The position numbers were made by a program, and so were the translations under genes. A stretch of 64,000 nucleotides of DNA, from the NCBI GenBank assembly GCA_047602475.1, contig JASGHE010000006.1:632051-696050 (forward strand). The letters run 5' to 3'. The notes below the pieces were generated by a model. That model made no database searches and was not told the origin of the DNA. It worked only from the letters and a program-made list of their open reading frames with translations. Below are positions 1 through 6,626 of this stretch, piece by piece (position 1 is the first letter of the stretch; the number at the start of each line of letters is the position of its first letter). The DNA is from Gemmatales bacterium. Lineage in GTDB: Bacteria > Planctomycetota > Planctomycetia > Gemmatales > HRBIN36.

Positions 1-136
1 GTGAGGAAAGCAATGCTTCCTGGTGCTTGGCATGCTCTTGAAACTCCTCCCTTACCTGCTCACGCAGTTGTGTGGTAAGCACGCTGGAAATCTCAATCGG
101 ATAGCTGCATTTCGGGCAGAGGATGGCTTCGGACAT
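1..136 (-). CDS. DUF2130-family protein, 5' part (runs off window)
   Basis: Not in ORF track. AGGAG RBS, then ATG at 136 giving MSEAILCPKCSYPIEISSVLTTQLREQVREEFQEH. The CPxC zinc knuckle followed by coiled coil is typical of the DUF2130 N-terminus. Confidence 0.6.
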   Translation of the reverse strand, partial: MSEAILCPKCSYPIEISSVLTTQLREQVREEFQEHAKHQEALLSS

Positions 137-256
137 GGTTCGTCTCCTGTTGTAATTCGTCGATGTTGCCTAGCAGGCGCTTCTGACAGCGTCTATCAGG
201 CAATTGGCGAATTACATTCGACACGGTGACGAGTATTGTGACAGCACTCTGGAATA

Positions 257-2086
257 TTAATCAACCATCTGCAACATACCACGCCCCGGCTCAAGCTGGA
301 CCAGAAGTGCTGGATCAATTCCCTGGGCTGAGACGATGGCTTGCCCCGGTGGTAAATGTTTGAGCCGCGTCCACATCGATTCCGGAACTCCGCCAACACT
401 TTTTTTCAGTTGATTCAAAGTTGGTTCGTCGGCAATCTTCAGGAGAACCTTATTGTTGCAAAGGGAGTAGAGTTCATTCGGCAAGTGGCCCGGGAACTGT
501 GACGCGAATGTCAGTCCCAACCATCGCTTGCGGCCACGTCGAGCAATTCGCTGGAGTTGCTCCATGACCATGGGAAGCTGCTTAGAGCGACCCGCGCCCA
601 CAAACTCATGGGCTTCTTCAATAATAATGACCGTTTTCGGTTTTTGCCCGACCGGTGCAGCATCGTACAACTGATCCTGCGCTGCTGCCACACCTCGAAG
701 CACATCGGCGATAGCGAGATTACGGTGGGTTGGATTGTCAACTGCTGCGACATCGAAAATGACGACATGACCTGGCTTCAGCATATTCACAAAGTTAAGG
801 GAAGTAATTGTGCGCCCATCGGCAGCAATGCTGTCGTGGCGATCAAAGAGCCGGCTGCGGTAAAGTTTGGCGAGCAAGCTGACAGTTTTGCGCCACGATG
901 CCACATGGGCGTGTTTCTTCTTGACGTCTGCCGCTTTCTGTCGCAGGCGGGTTGCTTCATGCTTGAAACCATCGTCGTGGAGAAAGCGTTCTTGTATTTC
1001 GCCATTCCCCACGACTTCAGCGACAGCTTCGGCCATGTCCAGGACATGCCCCAGCCGCAATCCCGGATAACCGTTTTCTTGATCGTCCCAACTACGCAGT
1101 AGTTCTTCGTGAGCCTTTCTACGGTCATCAGGCAAAGTCTGGACATACAACTCACACGCAGCATCATAAGCAGCTAAGAATCGCTCTGTCTGCGCTTCAT
1201 TTCCCTGCAATAGCTCAGACGCTACATGGGGTGAGATGTTCGCAAACTCTATGCTGAAACGGCGAATGGCGGGGTGAGTTGTATCACTCGGAGTTAAGTC
1301 GGTAGGCACAAGCAAGTAGTTGCTGGGAAGGCCAGCAGGTTCTAGCCCCCACTGCCGTAGTGCCGGCAAGATGTTCGGCGAAGCAGCGGCTCGATGCAAG
1401 CTGGCATATTCTCCTTCCACATCCAAAAGCAGTACGCAAAAACCCGCTTGCGATTGTCGCTCGATCCATCCTGCAAGGAAAGTGGACTTTCCGGCCCCTG
1501 TCGTGCCTACTACCAGGCTGTGGCGGGGAACGTGATGTTTCTCCGTGCTACGCAATCCAACTGAAACGCCGTCGTAGCCTACTGCCTTGCCAAGTCTCAG
1601 ATCGCCGTTACAGGAGAGTGCAGATTGTGTTTCTTCCGTGCTCAGCAGTTTCACTGGGCTGTTCGGTCGGGGACGATAGAGAGGCACAATTTTCTGCCCA
1701 TCTTTAATCTCACCCAAGATCTCCAGCGCTACCCACCCGTGATATGGAGGGGTGAACAATGCGTTTTCAATCTGGCTGATCACCAACGGCTGAGCCTGGG
1801 CCTGAATCCCCACTGGGGCTGCAAACGGTCCTTTCACAACTTGCCCTAAATAGATTCGGTTGTCCGAACTTTCAATATGAACCAGAGCTTGCGTATTCCA
1901 ACGATCAAACGTCTCCTGTGGAAAGACAGCCAGAACCGTACCATCCTCGCTTGTCTGCGGGGAATCAAACAACGTGCGTCCATCCGCATCATCAGGCAGC
2001 GGAGCCAGTCCATCCTGAAACTCCTGAGATTCAAGATGCAACATCACCTGCGGCGGCAATGGATCGGCTATTGATGACTGAGGCAT
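257..2086 (-). CDS. herA: HerA/DUF87-family ATPase (HAS barrel + FtsK-HerA P-loop)
   Basis: Walker A GTTGAGKST, LLLDVEGEY, Walker B IIIEEAHEF, arginine finger region ARRGRKRWLGLTFASQFP, C-terminal LPPGQA. Confidence 0.9.
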   Translation of the reverse strand: MPQSSIADPLPPQVMLHLESQEFQDGLAPLPDDADGRTLFDSPQTSEDGTVLAVFPQETFDRWNTQALVHIESSDNRIYLGQVVKGPFAAPVGIQAQAQPLVISQIENALFTPPYHGWVALEILGEIKDGQKIVPLYRPRPNSPVKLLSTEETQSALSCNGDLRLGKAVGYDGVSVGLRSTEKHHVPRHSLVVGTTGAGKSTFLAGWIERQSQAGFCVLLLDVEGEYASLHRAAASPNILPALRQWGLEPAGLPSNYLLVPTDLTPSDTTHPAIRRFSIEFANISPHVASELLQGNEAQTERFLAAYDAACELYVQTLPDDRRKAHEELLRSWDDQENGYPGLRLGHVLDMAEAVAEVVGNGEIQERFLHDDGFKHEATRLRQKAADVKKKHAHVASWRKTVSLLAKLYRSRLFDRHDSIAADGRTITSLNFVNMLKPGHVVIFDVAAVDNPTHRNLAIADVLRGVAAAQDQLYDAAPVGQKPKTVIIIEEAHEFVGAGRSKQLPMVMEQLQRIARRGRKRWLGLTFASQFPGHLPNELYSLCNNKVLLKIADEPTLNQLKKSVGGVPESMWTRLKHLPPGQAIVSAQGIDPALLVQLEPGRGMLQMVD

Positions 2087-2102
2087 AGCACCCTCGGTAA
2101 AA

Positions 2103-3340
2103 TCAGATCGGTGTCAGAATGCGTCCGGAGCTGAACTGGCTGGCGGCTCGTTCTTTGGAATATGCTGCCTCCACTAACGAGCTGAAGCTTTCAATGCCTA
2201 AGCCGGTCTTCGCTCCCAGGCGAGCGAGTTCCAGAAGGAGTGGGTAGCCTCGATGAGGCTGCAGGGCAGCATCGGCCAAGGCGATTACTCCTGCTTCTAG
2301 AGCATGTTCGGCATGAGCAAAGAACAGTTGCGCCGCGCGGACCGCGTCGCACGAAGTCCACCCACAATCATCGACTCACCCAGTTTCTCAGCAAAAGCCA
2401 GTACTTTAGCTTTGCGAACAGGGTCATAAGTTCCACGTTCCACCATGTCTTGTAGAACAAGCTTCCCTTTTTGAAGTATCGCGATCTGTCCAGGTTCAAG
2501 TGCTCCTGCAATGGTCAGCAGGGCCCGGTTGGCATCTCGTTCCGATACGAATACCCAACGCTTCTCTTGGAGAAGTAATTGCTCGAGGACGGGAAGCATT
2601 TCATCAATCAGTTCCATTGACCCCGAGCCTGTGAGGATTTCCAGAGGAGTGGGGACGCCGTGCCCCAAGCGCCAAGGAGTCGTCGTTCGTTGCAGGAGCG
2701 CCTTTCGTTCCATGGAGGCCATGATGCCGCGACGCAGCAAACTTGTGATTTGATCTCTGTTATTAACCGATCCACGGGCTGCACGTCGATCAAGGAACTG
2801 TCGCAGTCCCTCTACCACATCTTTATGATCGGCACTGTAATCGTGTCGGAGAAAGGTGGTTCGCCACGAGTGCATGGCTCCATCATAACGGGTCAGGCAA
2901 ACGCCCACTGCCACCAGCGTGGCTGTCACGCCATCGTGGCCGGTGTTGGCACCCTCTGCGGCAGTAACTCGACCGGCTAGTAGGATGTTTCGTCGAGCTA
3001 CCTTCTGATGTTTCTCATCGACTGTATAGACACCAACGCCAGGAGGAGCGTCTGGAATACGTTTGAGCTCTTGCAGAATATTGTGACGAATGGCCTGATG
3101 AAGATTTCGCTCTGCCAGCACCGATTTTTTGATAGCTGAGGGGATGCGTTCCAGCATGACTTGGAGTCCGGCGTGATCATCCCATTGTTGTAGATCGAGG
3201 GCTTCACGCAACATTTGTCCAAGAGCTTCTTCAAGAGTGGCGGAAGTTAATATGGGCTCGGGAGGCAGCATCTCTGGGGGTGCATCCGCCCGACGTTCAC
3301 CCACCATAGAGGCAGCTGCATCATGCATCATGATTGCCAC
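2103..3340 (-). CDS. NurA-like nuclease-fold protein; 1-bp frameshift near 2335 (ORF track truncates it at 2297)
   Basis: Lies directly upstream of HerA. The alternate frame continues AQLFFAHAEHALEAGVIALADAALQPHRGYPLLLELARLGA...TPI* to TGA at 2103-2105. GYPxxL is the NurA C-terminal motif; AAEGA sits where NurA has AVDGS. Confidence 0.65.
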
Positions 3341-4070
3341 ATTTGCCGATGGAAGGCAGGAACCATGAGCTGAATGCTCTATCGCGGTAGTTTCGTTGTA
3401 AGAGTGGTAGATAGCCGCGAGCCCAGTTCTCCGGCACGCCGAACGCTTGATGTAATAACTCCAACCACTTCAATTTATCTTCCCGAGCTATGTGCCTTGT
3501 CCTGGCTCGTGCTATGACTTCTTTTCGTGGAGCAATCAAGAGACATGCGAGTGTATTGGCCCTCTGTTCTACCTCGGTTTCCTGTTTCTGTTCTTTGAAT
3601 TGGTAGTGATAGAAAGCTTGAATCGGGGCTCCCATAGCCGTTGACATCAGTACTTCAACAGTTTCTGCTGGGCTTTCCTGATCCAGTAACTGTAGACCTC
3701 TCTCTCCATACCGGAGCTTCATGCGGCGACGTGGTAACTCATAATCAATCCAGAAATGAGCAGTCTCATGCGCAACAATCATACGCCGTTCATCGACAGA
3801 CAAGGCGCTATCGATGAAGAGAACGGCATGTCCCTTCTGAGCGATGATGCAACCATCTAACCTTCGATTATTTGGAGGTTCAGATCTCGCAAAGCCTTTA
3901 GCTGACAACCACTCATAAGCACGTTGTGTCGTTAGTCCTTGCATTGATTCGATGGAAGCTGCGTAATGAATTGGCAGATAGCGTTCGACATCTCGGGGAA
4001 ATGAATTTCTTTCCGGGATTGGCTCCCAGAAAGTTGCTGCACAATGCTCCAGGTCTTCAAGGTTTTTCAT
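3321..4070 (-). CDS. ImmA/IrrE-family metallopeptidase
   Basis: RRMIVAHETAHF (HExxH) and EQRANTLA (ExxANxxA). Start could be 4070 or 4079. Confidence 0.85.
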   Translation of the reverse strand: MKNLEDLEHCAATFWEPIPERNSFPRDVERYLPIHYAASIESMQGLTTQRAYEWLSAKGFARSEPPNNRRLDGCIIAQKGHAVLFIDSALSVDERRMIVAHETAHFWIDYELPRRRMKLRYGERGLQLLDQESPAETVEVLMSTAMGAPIQAFYHYQFKEQKQETEVEQRANTLACLLIAPRKEVIARARTRHIAREDKLKWLELLHQAFGVPENWARGYLPLLQRNYRDRAFSSWFLPSIGKCGNHDA

Positions 4071-4443
4071 CGTCTTCATCTGATAGGAGTGGCGTTTCTG
4101 ACGCAGCCATGAGCCAACCACTTTGATTGGCCTGTGGTTTTGCCTGTCCCTGCCATTGAGCGAGAGCCCATTCCTTGCGTAACAGCCCAGCTAATAGCGT
4201 TGGTGTTACCTTGCAGTGTTGGGAGATAGCCATAAGGTCATCCTGAAAATGCTCCTGGCGGGGTGTCATGCACAAGCTTAGAGAGACCAACTGACTAATA
4301 CTAATGTCAAGTTGCCTGGCTTGTTCTTTCACCTTCAACTTCTCTCGGCGACGTTGCTGATAGAGCCAGTGCCCCACCCAGCTACTATCCTTGCGAGACT
4401 TGCGAAGCGCACTTTTCATCAAGGCTTGCTTATCTGAACTCAT
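4057..4443 (-). CDS. XRE-like HTH protein (probable ImmA/IrrE partner)
   Basis: HTH-like EQARQLDISISQLVSLSLC. ATGA overlap with the sigma gene stop; 3' end overlaps the peptidase start. Confidence 0.6.
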   Translation of the reverse strand: MSSDKQALMKSALRKSRKDSSWVGHWLYQQRRREKLKVKEQARQLDISISQLVSLSLCMTPRQEHFQDDLMAISQHCKVTPTLLAGLLRKEWALAQWQGQAKPQANQSGWLMAASETPLLSDEDDEKP

Positions 4444-5012
4444 GGCTGATCCTCCCTGGCCAGTTGTTTACGCAGCCTGCTCACGCGCTGACGCAGTCGG
4501 TCAGACAATTGCTTCACAAGTGAGGTGGCTTCTGCCCGAGTCTTCTGAGGTGTGCAGAACGTATCAATGATCGATTCATGGGAGCGGTTCTCCATCCAGA
4601 GTTCCAGATATTTTCGTTCGTCGTCGTCTTTAGCCAGTTCGACGGCATATCGTGCCCCCATTTTTTGTGTGGTGACCCAATCATCTATTTCATTCGAGGT
4701 CGGCGACTCATTTGTGACAGGCTCTTTAACCTTTTTTAACTCTCGCAGTTGGCGTCGCTGTCGTTTACGGATTCTATCGATGAGGCGTCTCTGTGCGATT
4801 TTCCTCAGCAGGGATATGAACTTCCCCTTTGTTGCATCCTCTTGTATGCCTTGGGAAGCAGCCGACCAGATCGCATCAATTACTGCATCGCTTATCTCAT
4901 CTTGATCAACCGTGGGATTGGTTTTCTTCAAAATAGCCATCAATCGAAGGGAGTATCGCTCGTAGAGTTCAGCTACCCGGACACGTTCTTGTGATGAAAG
5001 TGGTGAGTACAT
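4440..5012 (-). CDS. ECF-type sigma-70 family RNA polymerase sigma factor
   Basis: Region 2-like LYERYSLRL...DAVIDAIW...FISLLRKIAQRRLIDRIRK; divergent region 4-like C-terminus. Confidence 0.7.
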   Translation of the reverse strand: MYSPLSSQERVRVAELYERYSLRLMAILKKTNPTVDQDEISDAVIDAIWSAASQGIQEDATKGKFISLLRKIAQRRLIDRIRKRQRRQLRELKKVKEPVTNESPTSNEIDDWVTTQKMGARYAVELAKDDDERKYLELWMENRSHESIIDTFCTPQKTRAEATSLVKQLSDRLRQRVSRLRKQLAREDQP

Positions 5013-5617: not shown

Positions 5618-6118
5618 TCAGCGAATGCTCTTTGCAAGCATTTTCTTCGCTTTACGAGGCCCTTCACACGAAAGTACTTCGAACTTTTCACCGTCCAGAT
5701 CGTGGTAGCTCACGAAAAAGTGTTCAAGCTGCTCCAGGATTTGAATGGGCAATTCTTGAATTGAATGAATCCTCTTGTGTTCTGCGCTTTTCTCGGAGAT
5801 GCCAAGTAATCGATCATTCCGAATAGACTTTCCCTTTGTCGTCGTTTGTTTTCCTTCAATGACACCGATGAGGCGGACTTCTATGACGCATCCGCAGAAT
5901 GTGGGATCATCGAGTAAGACCAGTACATCGATTGGGTCACCATCTTGGGCTTTGGTACCTGGAACGAAACCGAAGTCGTAAGGGAAGATCATGCCTTTCG
6001 GCAACACCTTGCCAAGACAGTACTCTTTCGACTTCGGGTCATAGTCGTATTTATTCCGGCTGCCTTTCGGCGTTTCAATAATTACCTTCACTGTGTTGGT
6101 CTTAGACGTCTTGCTCAT
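5618..6118 (-). CDS. ppa: Inorganic pyrophosphatase (family I)
   Basis: IETPKGSRNKYDY, FPYDFGFVPGT, DGDPIDV motifs. Confidence 0.93.
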   Translation of the reverse strand: MSKTSKTNTVKVIIETPKGSRNKYDYDPKSKEYCLGKVLPKGMIFPYDFGFVPGTKAQDGDPIDVLVLLDDPTFCGCVIEVRLIGVIEGKQTTTKGKSIRNDRLLGISEKSAEHKRIHSIQELPIQILEQLEHFFVSYHDLDGEKFEVLSCEGPRKAKKMLAKSIR

Positions 6119-6626
6119 CTGCAGCCTTTCTTTGGAGTAGTTTTGGATTAACTGGAGCCGACACATCAGGGGATAGAGATTCAGTTACCTTCCCTTCAAA
6201 TAATCCGCCAACTAGCAAGACTGTCACGGAAATAAGTGCTGCTACGGTAGCCAGTCCGTACATTTCAACGCCACATGTCATACCTATTCCTGCGGAAAGC
6301 CAGATGGTACTAGCGGTGGTAAGACCCTTCACTTCCATTTTGTTGGTCAACTTCAGGATCGTTCCACCACCCAGGAACCCAATCCCCGCAATGATGCCTT
6401 CCATGACATGACCTAAGTCAATTTTCTTCGTGATGCCGATGATCAAAAAAAACGCAACAGTCAGGGAGACCATGACATGGGTCCGGAAGCCCGCCCACCG
6501 GCTTCTGCTTTCCTGTTCCAATCCCACCAAGCCACCCAGGATAAGGGAAAAGCCTAGTGGGATCAGAAGGTGAAAGGTCTCGGTCATATTCCAATGCTTC
6601 CGCATAGAAATCACCGGATAGAACAA
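6102..6626 (-). CDS. MgtC/SapB family membrane protein
   Basis: LVGLEQE...AGFRTH, GIGFLGGGTI, GLTTASTIW. Confidence 0.9.
   Translation of the reverse strand: MFYPVISMRKHWNMTETFHLLIPLGFSLILGGLVGLEQESRSRWAGFRTHVMVSLTVAFFLIIGITKKIDLGHVMEGIIAGIGFLGGGTILKLTNKMEVKGLTTASTIWLSAGIGMTCGVEMYGLATVAALISVTVLLVGGLFEGKVTESLSPDVSAPVNPKLLQRKAADEQDV

Follow-up and report, generated by a model that had tools for sequence, protein, structure and literature searches.

The window analysed here is a stretch of 64,000 nucleotides from a Gemmatales bacterium (Planctomycetota; GenBank assembly GCA_047602475.1, contig JASGHE010000006.1), lying at G000:C6:632051-696050 in the genome coordinates used in this study. Its first 5,012 nucleotides carry, all on the minus strand, a compact run of genes in which positions 257-5012 are one copy of a conserved five-gene cassette, coding for a sigma-like factor, a small protein (orf128), a peptidase, a nuclease and the ATPase HerA. 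The cassette and its immediate neighbour comprise the following features:

4440..5012, minus strand: gene for a sigma factor like those of the extracytoplasmic function (ECF) kind, 190 amino acids, first gene of the cassette, identified by its open reading frame (ORF) and by profile evidence
4057..4443, minus strand: orf128, a helical protein of 128 amino acids, candidate partner or substrate, either like an XRE helix-turn-helix (HTH) protein or anti-sigma-like
3321..4121, minus strand: M78 (ImmA/IrrE-type) zinc metallopeptidase, 266 amino acids, with PF06114 and HExxH
2297..3340, minus strand: 5' part of the NurA-fold nuclease gene, a 347-amino-acid ORF whose frame ends at the TAG at 2297-2299
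2103..2335, minus strand: 3' part of the NurA-fold nuclease gene in a shifted frame, encoding the invariant H340 and D354 and containing the ORF at 2103-2279
257..2086, minus strand: HerA-type hexameric ATPase/translocase, 609 amino acids, with PF01935 and PF05872
2-136, minus strand: start of a DUF2130 gene, its first 45 codons inside the window and the rest beyond the edge, a neighbour and not a core gene

The genes are tightly packed. The sigma-like gene and the 128-amino-acid ORF share 4 bp, and the peptidase overlaps that same ORF from each of the three starts that are possible before its conserved region (4121, 4079 and 4070). The nuclease probably starts at 3331, judging by the sequence of its homolog P0001, and would then share 11 bp with the peptidase stop; the HerA ATG at 2086 lies 16 bp past the nuclease TGA that is reached in the shifted frame (2103-2105). 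An earlier description of this stretch, made from the letters alone and referred to here as the sequence-only reading, had reported overlapping sigma, HTH-like, peptidase and NurA-like genes with HerA 16 bp past a restored NurA-like stop, and the ORF coordinates bear this out.

The same arrangement recurs in many other genomes. A scan of one genome per GTDB species yielded at least 173 confirmed relatives of the nuclease, and the best 80 loci were analysed, with genes counted by iterated profile hidden Markov models (HMMs) and a set called canonical where its genes stand in the same order, on one strand and within 8 kb; locus numbers below refer to these, L001 and L002 being stretches of the window's own genome. 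The sigma factor, orf128, the peptidase and HerA are each present in 72 of the 80 loci (single-sequence searches alone already place the peptidase and HerA in 72), all five genes occur together in 65, and 60 of these sets are canonical. The five non-canonical full sets reflect mergers or fusions of ORFs (L033, L039, L049 and L054) and insertions (L071). Of the 71 loci with at least 2.3 kb of upstream sequence, 67 have the regulatory trio in place (all but L004, L005, L008 and L075), and HerA lies directly downstream in 66 of the 72 loci with at least 2 kb on that side (all but L004, L005, L007, L008, L063 and L067). Such recurrence of one gene order across genomes puts the arrangement far outside what chance would produce. 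The sequence-only reading had proposed a self-contained module, and both the synteny of the trio with the NurA/HerA pair and the canonical order of the five genes in 60 of the 80 neighbourhoods uphold it. That reading also listed the DUF2130 gene; such a gene does follow HerA in the window (L001:10886-12136, 416 amino acids in full; PF09903, E 1e-60), but it is not part of the module and was rejected as a core component, as it stands after HerA in 3 of the 80 loci (L003, L010 and L037).

We note that three loci belonging to the window's own clade of the nuclease tree discussed below, L004, L005 and L008 (the Limnoglobus roseus chromosome), hold decayed versions in which the NurA-like gene is isolated in a housekeeping setting. 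All that L008 keeps of HerA is a HerA-like fragment of 81 amino acids, 4 kb away and on the opposite strand.

The fourth gene of the cassette appears to encode a NurA by fold, though not by sequence. Neither piece of the nuclease matches any Pfam family at E <= 0.1, there is no match in NCBIfam or PADLOC, and a 41-sequence profile of the family finds no PDB sequence at E <= 10. It belongs to a small family: 79 homologs, mostly about 400-410 amino acids long, were recovered from a large protein collection, the closest being P0001 (409 amino acids, 94% identity), and the family profile run against 1.84 billion representative proteins gives 501 matches at E <= 1e-3, 157 of them at E <= 1e-30. An AlphaFold2 model was made of P0001 as the intact homolog (pLDDT 85, pTM 0.81), and it aligns over 274 residues with the NurA of Sulfolobus solfataricus (2ygk_B, Z 17.4, root-mean-square deviation 4.3). 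It also resembles the NurA proteins of Thermococcus kodakarensis (9x1l_G, Z 13.6) and Deinococcus radiodurans (7f6d_G, Z 12.6) and chain G of the TdpAB complex (8wet_G, Z 12.4). These NurA-type folds rank above the endonuclease V and Argonaute PIWI entries (Z <= 10), and Foldseek returns 2ygk_A at E 1.4e-7. In the nearest ESM Atlas clusters 21-30% of members are annotated with PF09376 (score 0.97), which serves as a lead. Within the family, D/E133 (at the end of strand 1), E208, H340 and D354 are invariant in 41 of 41 rows and D243 is present in 38 of 41, and these are candidates for the catalytic acidic and histidine residues. The NurA-like label of the sequence-only reading is thus confirmed at the level of the fold, by the match to 2ygk_B and with no sequence-family match behind it.

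The copy in the window is interrupted. Relative to P0001 and L003, the window lacks one C at 2335/2336, the DNA alignment showing TCCGCG-CGGCGC in the window where L003 has TCCGCGCCGGCGC. Past the missing C the homologous reading shifts frame and runs to the TGA at 2103-2105, and the detached tail is still matched by the family HMM on its own (E 4e-24 and 1.2e-32). Since the invariant H340 and D354 sit in this detached tail, the product as assembled would be without both. Twenty related genomes have a match, and it is split in two in the window's genome only; the other 19 each show it uninterrupted, as do the 409-amino-acid homologs, and a programmed frameshift was rejected on these grounds. 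Judged from the assembled letters, the nuclease gene is either broken or mis-sequenced, and this copy of the cassette would be correspondingly inactive or mis-sequenced.

HerA is readily recognised. It scores 56.1 bits against PF01935 (DUF87; cut-off 23.2, E 7e-15) and 39.5 bits against PF05872 (HerA_C; cut-off 22, E 4e-10), matches the PADLOC HerA models at up to E 4.6e-24, and has S. solfataricus HerA as its closest solved relative by sequence (4d2i, E 1.9e-20). The translation contains a P-loop, GTTGAGKST, and the stretch IIIEEAH, which we take to be the Walker A and Walker B motifs respectively. As its effectors, the cassette has a true HerA-NurA pair of the end-resection kind.

Clustering of the ORFs that flank the 80 loci yields one dominant family, a DNA methyltransferase of the N6/N4 type (PF01555) of about 430 amino acids. 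By HMM it adjoins the cassette in 47 of the 80 loci, and in 36 of the 49 that have at least 1.5 kb of sequence on both sides. It mostly sits immediately before the sigma gene and in the same orientation, and otherwise just after HerA on the opposite strand. Among the loci without this gene, a scan of 79 of the 169 flanking proteins revealed no substitute DNA methylase, the methyltransferase domains present being of small-molecule type, as in L012.

A second recurrent neighbour is CRISPR-Cas; it and the methyltransferase are the two strongest clues from context, and both were out of sight of the sequence-only reading. Cas operons of type I, on HerA's strand, lie downstream of it in 13 of the 80 loci, or in 12 when the count is confined to the 56 loci whose sequence continues for 1.5 kb or more past HerA. 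At least three subtypes are represented: those with GSU0053 and GSU0054, which we take to be I-G; one with Csd1 and Cas7 (L051), which we take to be I-C; and a DevR/Csa2 type (L028, L046 and L080). The window's genome provides an example. Beyond the cassette and the DUF2130 gene, on the same strand and just outside the window, lies a complete cas locus (L001:1251-9286, corresponding to C6:621301-629336) in the order Cas4-Cas1 fusion, Cas2, Cas3 with a C-terminal HD domain, a 325-amino-acid protein without a Pfam family, GSU0053, GSU0054 and a CRISPR array. The array extends from L002:15619 to L001:906 and comprises about 45 units with a 37-nt repeat, ACTTCAATTCGGCCCCGGCTCGTGAGCCGGGGAAAAC, at a period of about 73 nt. 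The locus that follows the window's cassette is a complete type I-G CRISPR-Cas system.

Further features were seen around these CRISPR-linked loci. About 1.6 kb between the DUF2130 gene and cas4-cas1 in the window's genome (L001:9554-10635), absent from the closest relative L003, contains a 172-amino-acid Sigma70_r4_2 protein (E 1e-9) and a 108-amino-acid ORF with an HTH_3 match that is cut off at the end of the ORF; it could represent another small pair of regulators, or else an insertion that has degraded. Between HerA and a Cas4 gene, L043 has genes for an SbcD-like phosphoesterase and an 891-amino-acid SbcC/SMC-like ATPase (L043:8200-12560), an arrangement reminiscent of the archaeal herA-mre11-rad50-nurA grouping. 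In a Thermogemmatispora contig, a short CRISPR-like array lies about 200 bp past HerA (L021:5179-5436; period 73, 3.5 copies), and the contig stops shortly beyond it. Upstream of the CRISPR locus in the window's genome there are tandem repeats at L002:9109-9492 (131 bp, 2.9 copies, 94% matches) and at L002:1643-1828 (91 bp, 2.0 copies, 95% matches), and a 19-bp piece of the 91-bp repeat unit recurs at L002:10265-10304.

A maximum-likelihood tree of the nuclease (81 rows, quick search, with SH-aLRT values as the only support measure) separates two clades at 100% support, one of 10 rows that includes the window (clade A) and one of 71 rows (clade B). Clade A has the methyltransferase in none of its rows, five that are cas-linked and several that have decayed; clade B spans many phyla and has the methyltransferase in most of its rows. 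Mapped onto this tree, the cas label requires 12 changes, of which well-supported branches force at least 9, and 29 of 500 shuffles gave a count as low. The tree run labelled 15 rows as cas-linked, including L072, in which the Cas3-like match proved to be weak and non-adjacent; with or without the L072 label, cas linkage has arisen or been lost many times. The 80 loci carry at least 14 phylum labels, some of those attached to metagenome bins being doubtful. Closer to the window the distribution is equally uneven, the nuclease being present in 19 of 61 related genomes with the window's own counted, namely one of the four other genomes of the genus, one of 14 in the family and 17 of 46 in the sister family. 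Within the window's own genome the cassette occurs once.

The three genes upstream of the nuclease may form a regulatory switch. By its sequence the first product is a divergent ECF-type sigma factor. Taken alone, the window's protein falls below threshold both for Sigma70_r2 (21.2 bits versus a cut-off of 24, E 2.6e-4) and for the ECF superfamily model TIGR02937 (24.2 versus 42.9 bits, E 2.1e-5), and a 46-member profile of the family covers the entire length of ECF sigma factors of known structure (6in7_B, positions 6-195, E 2.9e-5). Individual members match Sigma70_r2 in 25 of 46 cases and TIGR02937 in 31 of 46, and none matches a region-4 Pfam model at E <= 0.01. The NCBIfam model for the RpoE-like sigma factor of type III-E systems gives an insignificant score with the window's protein (E 0.031).

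The second product, orf128, has no match in Pfam, NCBIfam or PADLOC and is not a recognisable member of HTH_3. Its alignment shows an invariant C58 and P61 in a stretch of the LALCRRP type and a conserved C-terminal LMAA(R/S)(D/E) motif (of the LMAARDR type, LMAASE in the window) ahead of an acidic tail. In an AlphaFold2 model (pLDDT 87) the protein folds into six helices, with residues 102-128 disordered and the conserved C-terminal motif lying in this tail. Fold searches with the model return nothing significant, the best Z being 4.7 and the best Foldseek E 0.55 (the N-terminal domain of CapH), with ImmR at Z 4.0; the family profile run against the PDB reaches HipB at E about 0.7. The weak fold lists are nevertheless populated mostly by XRE-type DNA-binding domains, with the CapH N-terminal domain first and ImmR, DdrO, SinR and controller proteins of restriction-modification systems also present. 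The term HTH-like in the sequence-only reading thus agrees with the proteins that dominate these lists but is matched by no significant fold or sequence hit. A search for the orf128 family in 401 sampled genomes of the phylum, of limited sensitivity in that 10 candidates were scored per genome, gave two matches, one of them the window's own.

The third product is an M78 peptidase, which matches PF06114 with 31.3 bits (cut-off 22), contains HExxH, is hit by the PADLOC capP model at E 4.4e-6 and aligns to IrrE around the HExxH region. In a family of 43 sequences H118, H122 and E185 are invariant, and E119 is nearly so. In three loci assigned to Actinomycetota, orf128 and the peptidase are fused as one ORF of 369-415 amino acids (L039:8747-9856, L049:8664-9911 and L054:8787-9971), and these natural fusions argue that the two proteins work together. 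A three-protein complex prediction with the sigma factor, the peptidase and orf128 scored 0.80, 0.81 and 0.80; replacing orf128 lowered the score to 0.00 and 0.00, and replacing the peptidase by an unrelated protein left it at 0.81, short of the mark for specificity, so that the prediction counts neither as support nor as contrary evidence. A scan for sigma-70 promoters found 3 sites versus 4.4 expected, counts of gapped dyads and k-mers in 67 upstream regions reached a maximum of 5 versus 3-4 in shuffles, and an alignment of six upstream regions from clade A has no conserved block; on whether the sigma factor directs a cognate promoter, these results speak neither for nor against.

Other genes were also seen in the neighbourhood of the cassette. 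Immediately upstream of it in the window, on the same strand, two genes (5618-6626) code for an inorganic pyrophosphatase (PF00719, E 2e-36) and a protein of the MgtC family, and a 605-bp gap of lower G+C content (0.43-0.45) separates them from the sigma gene. Proteins with a PF02577 bifunctional nuclease domain occur near the cassette in L022 (8527-9744) and L005 (9169-10233), and in L022 this domain is fused to a complete ECF sigma factor (Sigma70_r2 plus r4_2) directly after HerA.

Comparison with known systems places the cassette close to several of them and inside none. With the HerA-NurA machinery of archaea and Deinococcus it shares adjacent nurA and herA genes, the NurA fold (Z 17.4, 13.6 and 12.6) and the DUF87 and HerA_C domains. 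It differs in that its nuclease has diverged beyond the reach of the Pfam NurA model and of sequence matching in the PDB, in the absence of mre11 and rad50 partners (apart from the SbcCD-like genes of L043), in its upstream trio (67 of 71 loci), in its usual methyltransferase and in its patchy spread. The upstream trio most resembles, by analogy, the CapH/CapP, ImmR/ImmA and DdrO/IrrE switches with a sigma factor added. As in these, an M78 peptidase stands beside a small helical protein at the head of an operon of defence or stress type, and further likenesses are the capP match (E 4.4e-6), the IrrE alignment at HExxH, the weak fold matches of orf128 and the fusions; the cassette differs by its sigma-like third component (72 of 80 loci) and by the conserved motifs that are orf128's own. 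The trio also bears a resemblance to type III-E CRISPR systems (Craspase), in which a protease frees an ECF-type sigma factor, RpoE, from its small partner Csx30 beside CRISPR genes. The protease there is a CHAT caspase-like enzyme, whereas that of the cassette is an M78 zinc peptidase, and the CRISPR neighbour of the cassette is of type I.

Two other systems combine DNA modification with a motor and a nuclease. The tdpABC genes specify a phosphorothioate-based, restriction-like system of extremophiles (introduction passage of PMC12914056), and it resembles the cassette, and offers a precedent for it, in pairing a DNA-modification gene with a motor-nuclease pair, chain G of 8wet matching our NurA-like model (Z 12.4). 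The modification enzyme of the cassette is, however, an N6/N4 methyltransferase (PF01555) and not a phosphorothioation enzyme, and that introduction passage makes no mention of a sigma/peptidase switch. MADS (mad1-mad8) is, according to an excerpt of PMC13662399, a methylation-linked system with an ATPase-nuclease module, MAD7/MAD8, that cooperates with CRISPR-Cas. The cassette HerA matches the PADLOC mad8 model (E 6e-20) and a clade B methyltransferase matches mad2 weakly (E 1.7e-9). Membership in MADS was rejected: no other mad model is matched by a cassette protein, an OLD-like MAD3/MAD4 pair and a kinase are both lacking, and the cassette has five or six genes versus eight. No model in PADLOC-DB 2.0.0 covers the combination found here, and a literature search, with subscription journals outside its scope, found no paper on it; the sequence-only reading, which had not recognised the combination as a named system, agrees with both. 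What is new is the combination; of its ingredients, HerA-based defence, M78 protease-repressor switches and protease-released sigma factors, each is already known on its own.

With moderate confidence, we favour the interpretation that the cassette is a restriction-like defence module built on HerA-NurA, spread horizontally and controlled by a switch of protease, partner and sigma factor; the sequence-only reading, taken as a whole, is partly supported. HerA and NurA, to judge from family and fold, would form a motor-nuclease complex that threads and degrades DNA. In most lineages the PF01555 methyltransferase beside the cassette presumably marks self DNA, which would give the system a restriction-like character. 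The three upstream genes would constitute the switch, in which orf128 at rest may keep the system off by binding either the sigma factor or DNA. A signal would then activate the peptidase and, by analogy with ImmA, IrrE and CapP, might be single-stranded DNA or damage resulting from infection. The activated peptidase would cut orf128, perhaps at the conserved LMAARD-type tail, and the sigma factor would then raise transcription of the operon. A role in defence rather than in housekeeping repair is suggested by the dedicated methyltransferase, the patchy spread across phyla, the repeated decay and the repeated joining to CRISPR-Cas. In the window, where it lies head-to-tail with the I-G locus, the cassette may act, or be co-regulated, with CRISPR immunity.

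Several observations weigh against this interpretation and favour others. The nearest relatives of both enzymes (of NurA by fold, of HerA by sequence) are DNA-repair proteins. The methyltransferase is missing in 13 of the 49 fully flanked loci, including all 10 rows of the window's clade, and there is no ortholog elsewhere in the window's genome, the best match there scoring 51 bits (E 2e-13, versus E 1e-106 to 1e-164 for cassette-linked enzymes); because the methyltransferase is absent, a restriction-like logic cannot hold for the window's copy or its clade. The flanks of the 33 loci without it are mostly housekeeping genes and not defence islands. Relatives have decayed, with NurA alone in L004, L005 and L008 and HerA missing in L007, L063 and L067, and the nuclease gene is broken in this genome. 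No relative of the nuclease was found in plasmid or phage collections, and no conserved promoter or operator emerged from the promoter scan, the motif count or the upstream alignment. The fold assignment of orf128 is not significant, so that its model hints faintly at an HTH protein and offers a lead. Some of these points would suit a damage-inducible operon for double-strand-break repair, in which an ImmA/IrrE-type switch induces HerA-NurA end resection for recombination, as in archaea and Deinococcus, with no role in immunity. Its best relatives are indeed repair enzymes (NurA of S. solfataricus, T. kodakarensis and D. radiodurans, and HerA of S. solfataricus), IrrE-type M78 peptidases respond to DNA damage according to an excerpt of PMC10904395, the SbcD-like and SbcC/SMC-like genes after HerA in L043 recall the archaeal herA-mre11-rad50-nurA grouping, and many methyltransferase-less loci lie among housekeeping genes. 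A repair operon, however, has no place for the dedicated methyltransferase found at 36 of 49 fully flanked cassettes or for the repeated linkage to cas operons, and a distribution that is patchy even within the genus (one of four other genomes), scattered over many phyla and accompanied by repeated decay is unlike that of core repair functions. We consider this explanation unlikely.

The linkage to cas genes admits a different explanation, in which the cassette is an accessory module of CRISPR-Cas, and in this lineage either HerA-NurA could process foreign or broken DNA into substrates for spacer capture by Cas4-Cas1 or the sigma/protease switch could turn on the cas operon during infection. 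It draws on the run of cassette, DUF2130, Cas4-Cas1, Cas2, Cas3, GSU0053, GSU0054 and array (about 45 repeats) on one strand in the window's genome, on the five of 10 clade A rows that are cas-linked, with cas4-cas1 as the first cas gene, and on the recurrence of the linkage over the I-G, I-C and DevR/Csa2-type subtypes. HerA and NurA are listed as accessory genes coevolved with type III systems in passages of PMC6546367 and as putative CRISPR auxiliary genes in a figure legend of PMC10910872; those passages and that legend make no mention of the regulatory trio or of a type I context. Yet 44 of the 56 loci with room past HerA have no cas genes, so that the module stands alone in most genomes, its commonest partner is the methyltransferase, and no shared promoter motif was found. 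Defence systems are, moreover, often adjacent to one another without functional coupling. We think this explanation improbable. Independent of the question of function is whether the frameshift in the window's nuclease gene is a real mutation and this copy a decaying, non-functional remnant, which is a tenable idea that we hold tentatively. One C is missing relative to L003 and every intact homolog, the split match is confined to this genome among the 20 with a match, the break takes away the invariant H340 and D354, and the clade includes other states of decay, namely NurA alone (L004, L005 and L008), a HerA remnant (L008) and no HerA (L007). The remaining four cassette genes, however, are full length with their motifs intact, and the downstream piece is well conserved (E 4e-24 and 1.2e-32), which is compatible with a very recent mutation or with a one-base assembly error in the GC-rich CGCCGGCG context.

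Returning to the favoured interpretation as a gated defence module, a more far-reaching form of it can be put forward, which is rather doubtful as a whole. The cassette could be an immune system that is widely dispersed and so far undescribed, with six genes in full (DNA methyltransferase, ECF-like sigma factor, partner, M78 protease, NurA and HerA), in which a protease-gated sigma factor licenses a HerA-NurA shredder, and which has repeatedly been joined to type I CRISPR-Cas, there perhaps sharing its switch with the cas operon or supplying fragments for spacer capture. For the window's clade the most interesting reading may be a role beside the I-G system, either regulatory or feeding DNA fragments to Cas4-Cas1.

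The cassette thus unites, in a tightly conserved form that occurs under at least 14 phylum labels, three elements that are known separately. The practical weight for this genome is smaller, its copy being without the methyltransferase and its nuclease gene broken or mis-sequenced. If the cassette does act in defence, it would add a restriction-like mechanism built on an end-resection machine of the archaeal type, and it would show how a three-part switch can keep a dangerous nuclease silent. The repeated joining to type I CRISPR-Cas makes it testable whether end-resection enzymes besides RecBCD and AddAB feed or regulate CRISPR adaptation.

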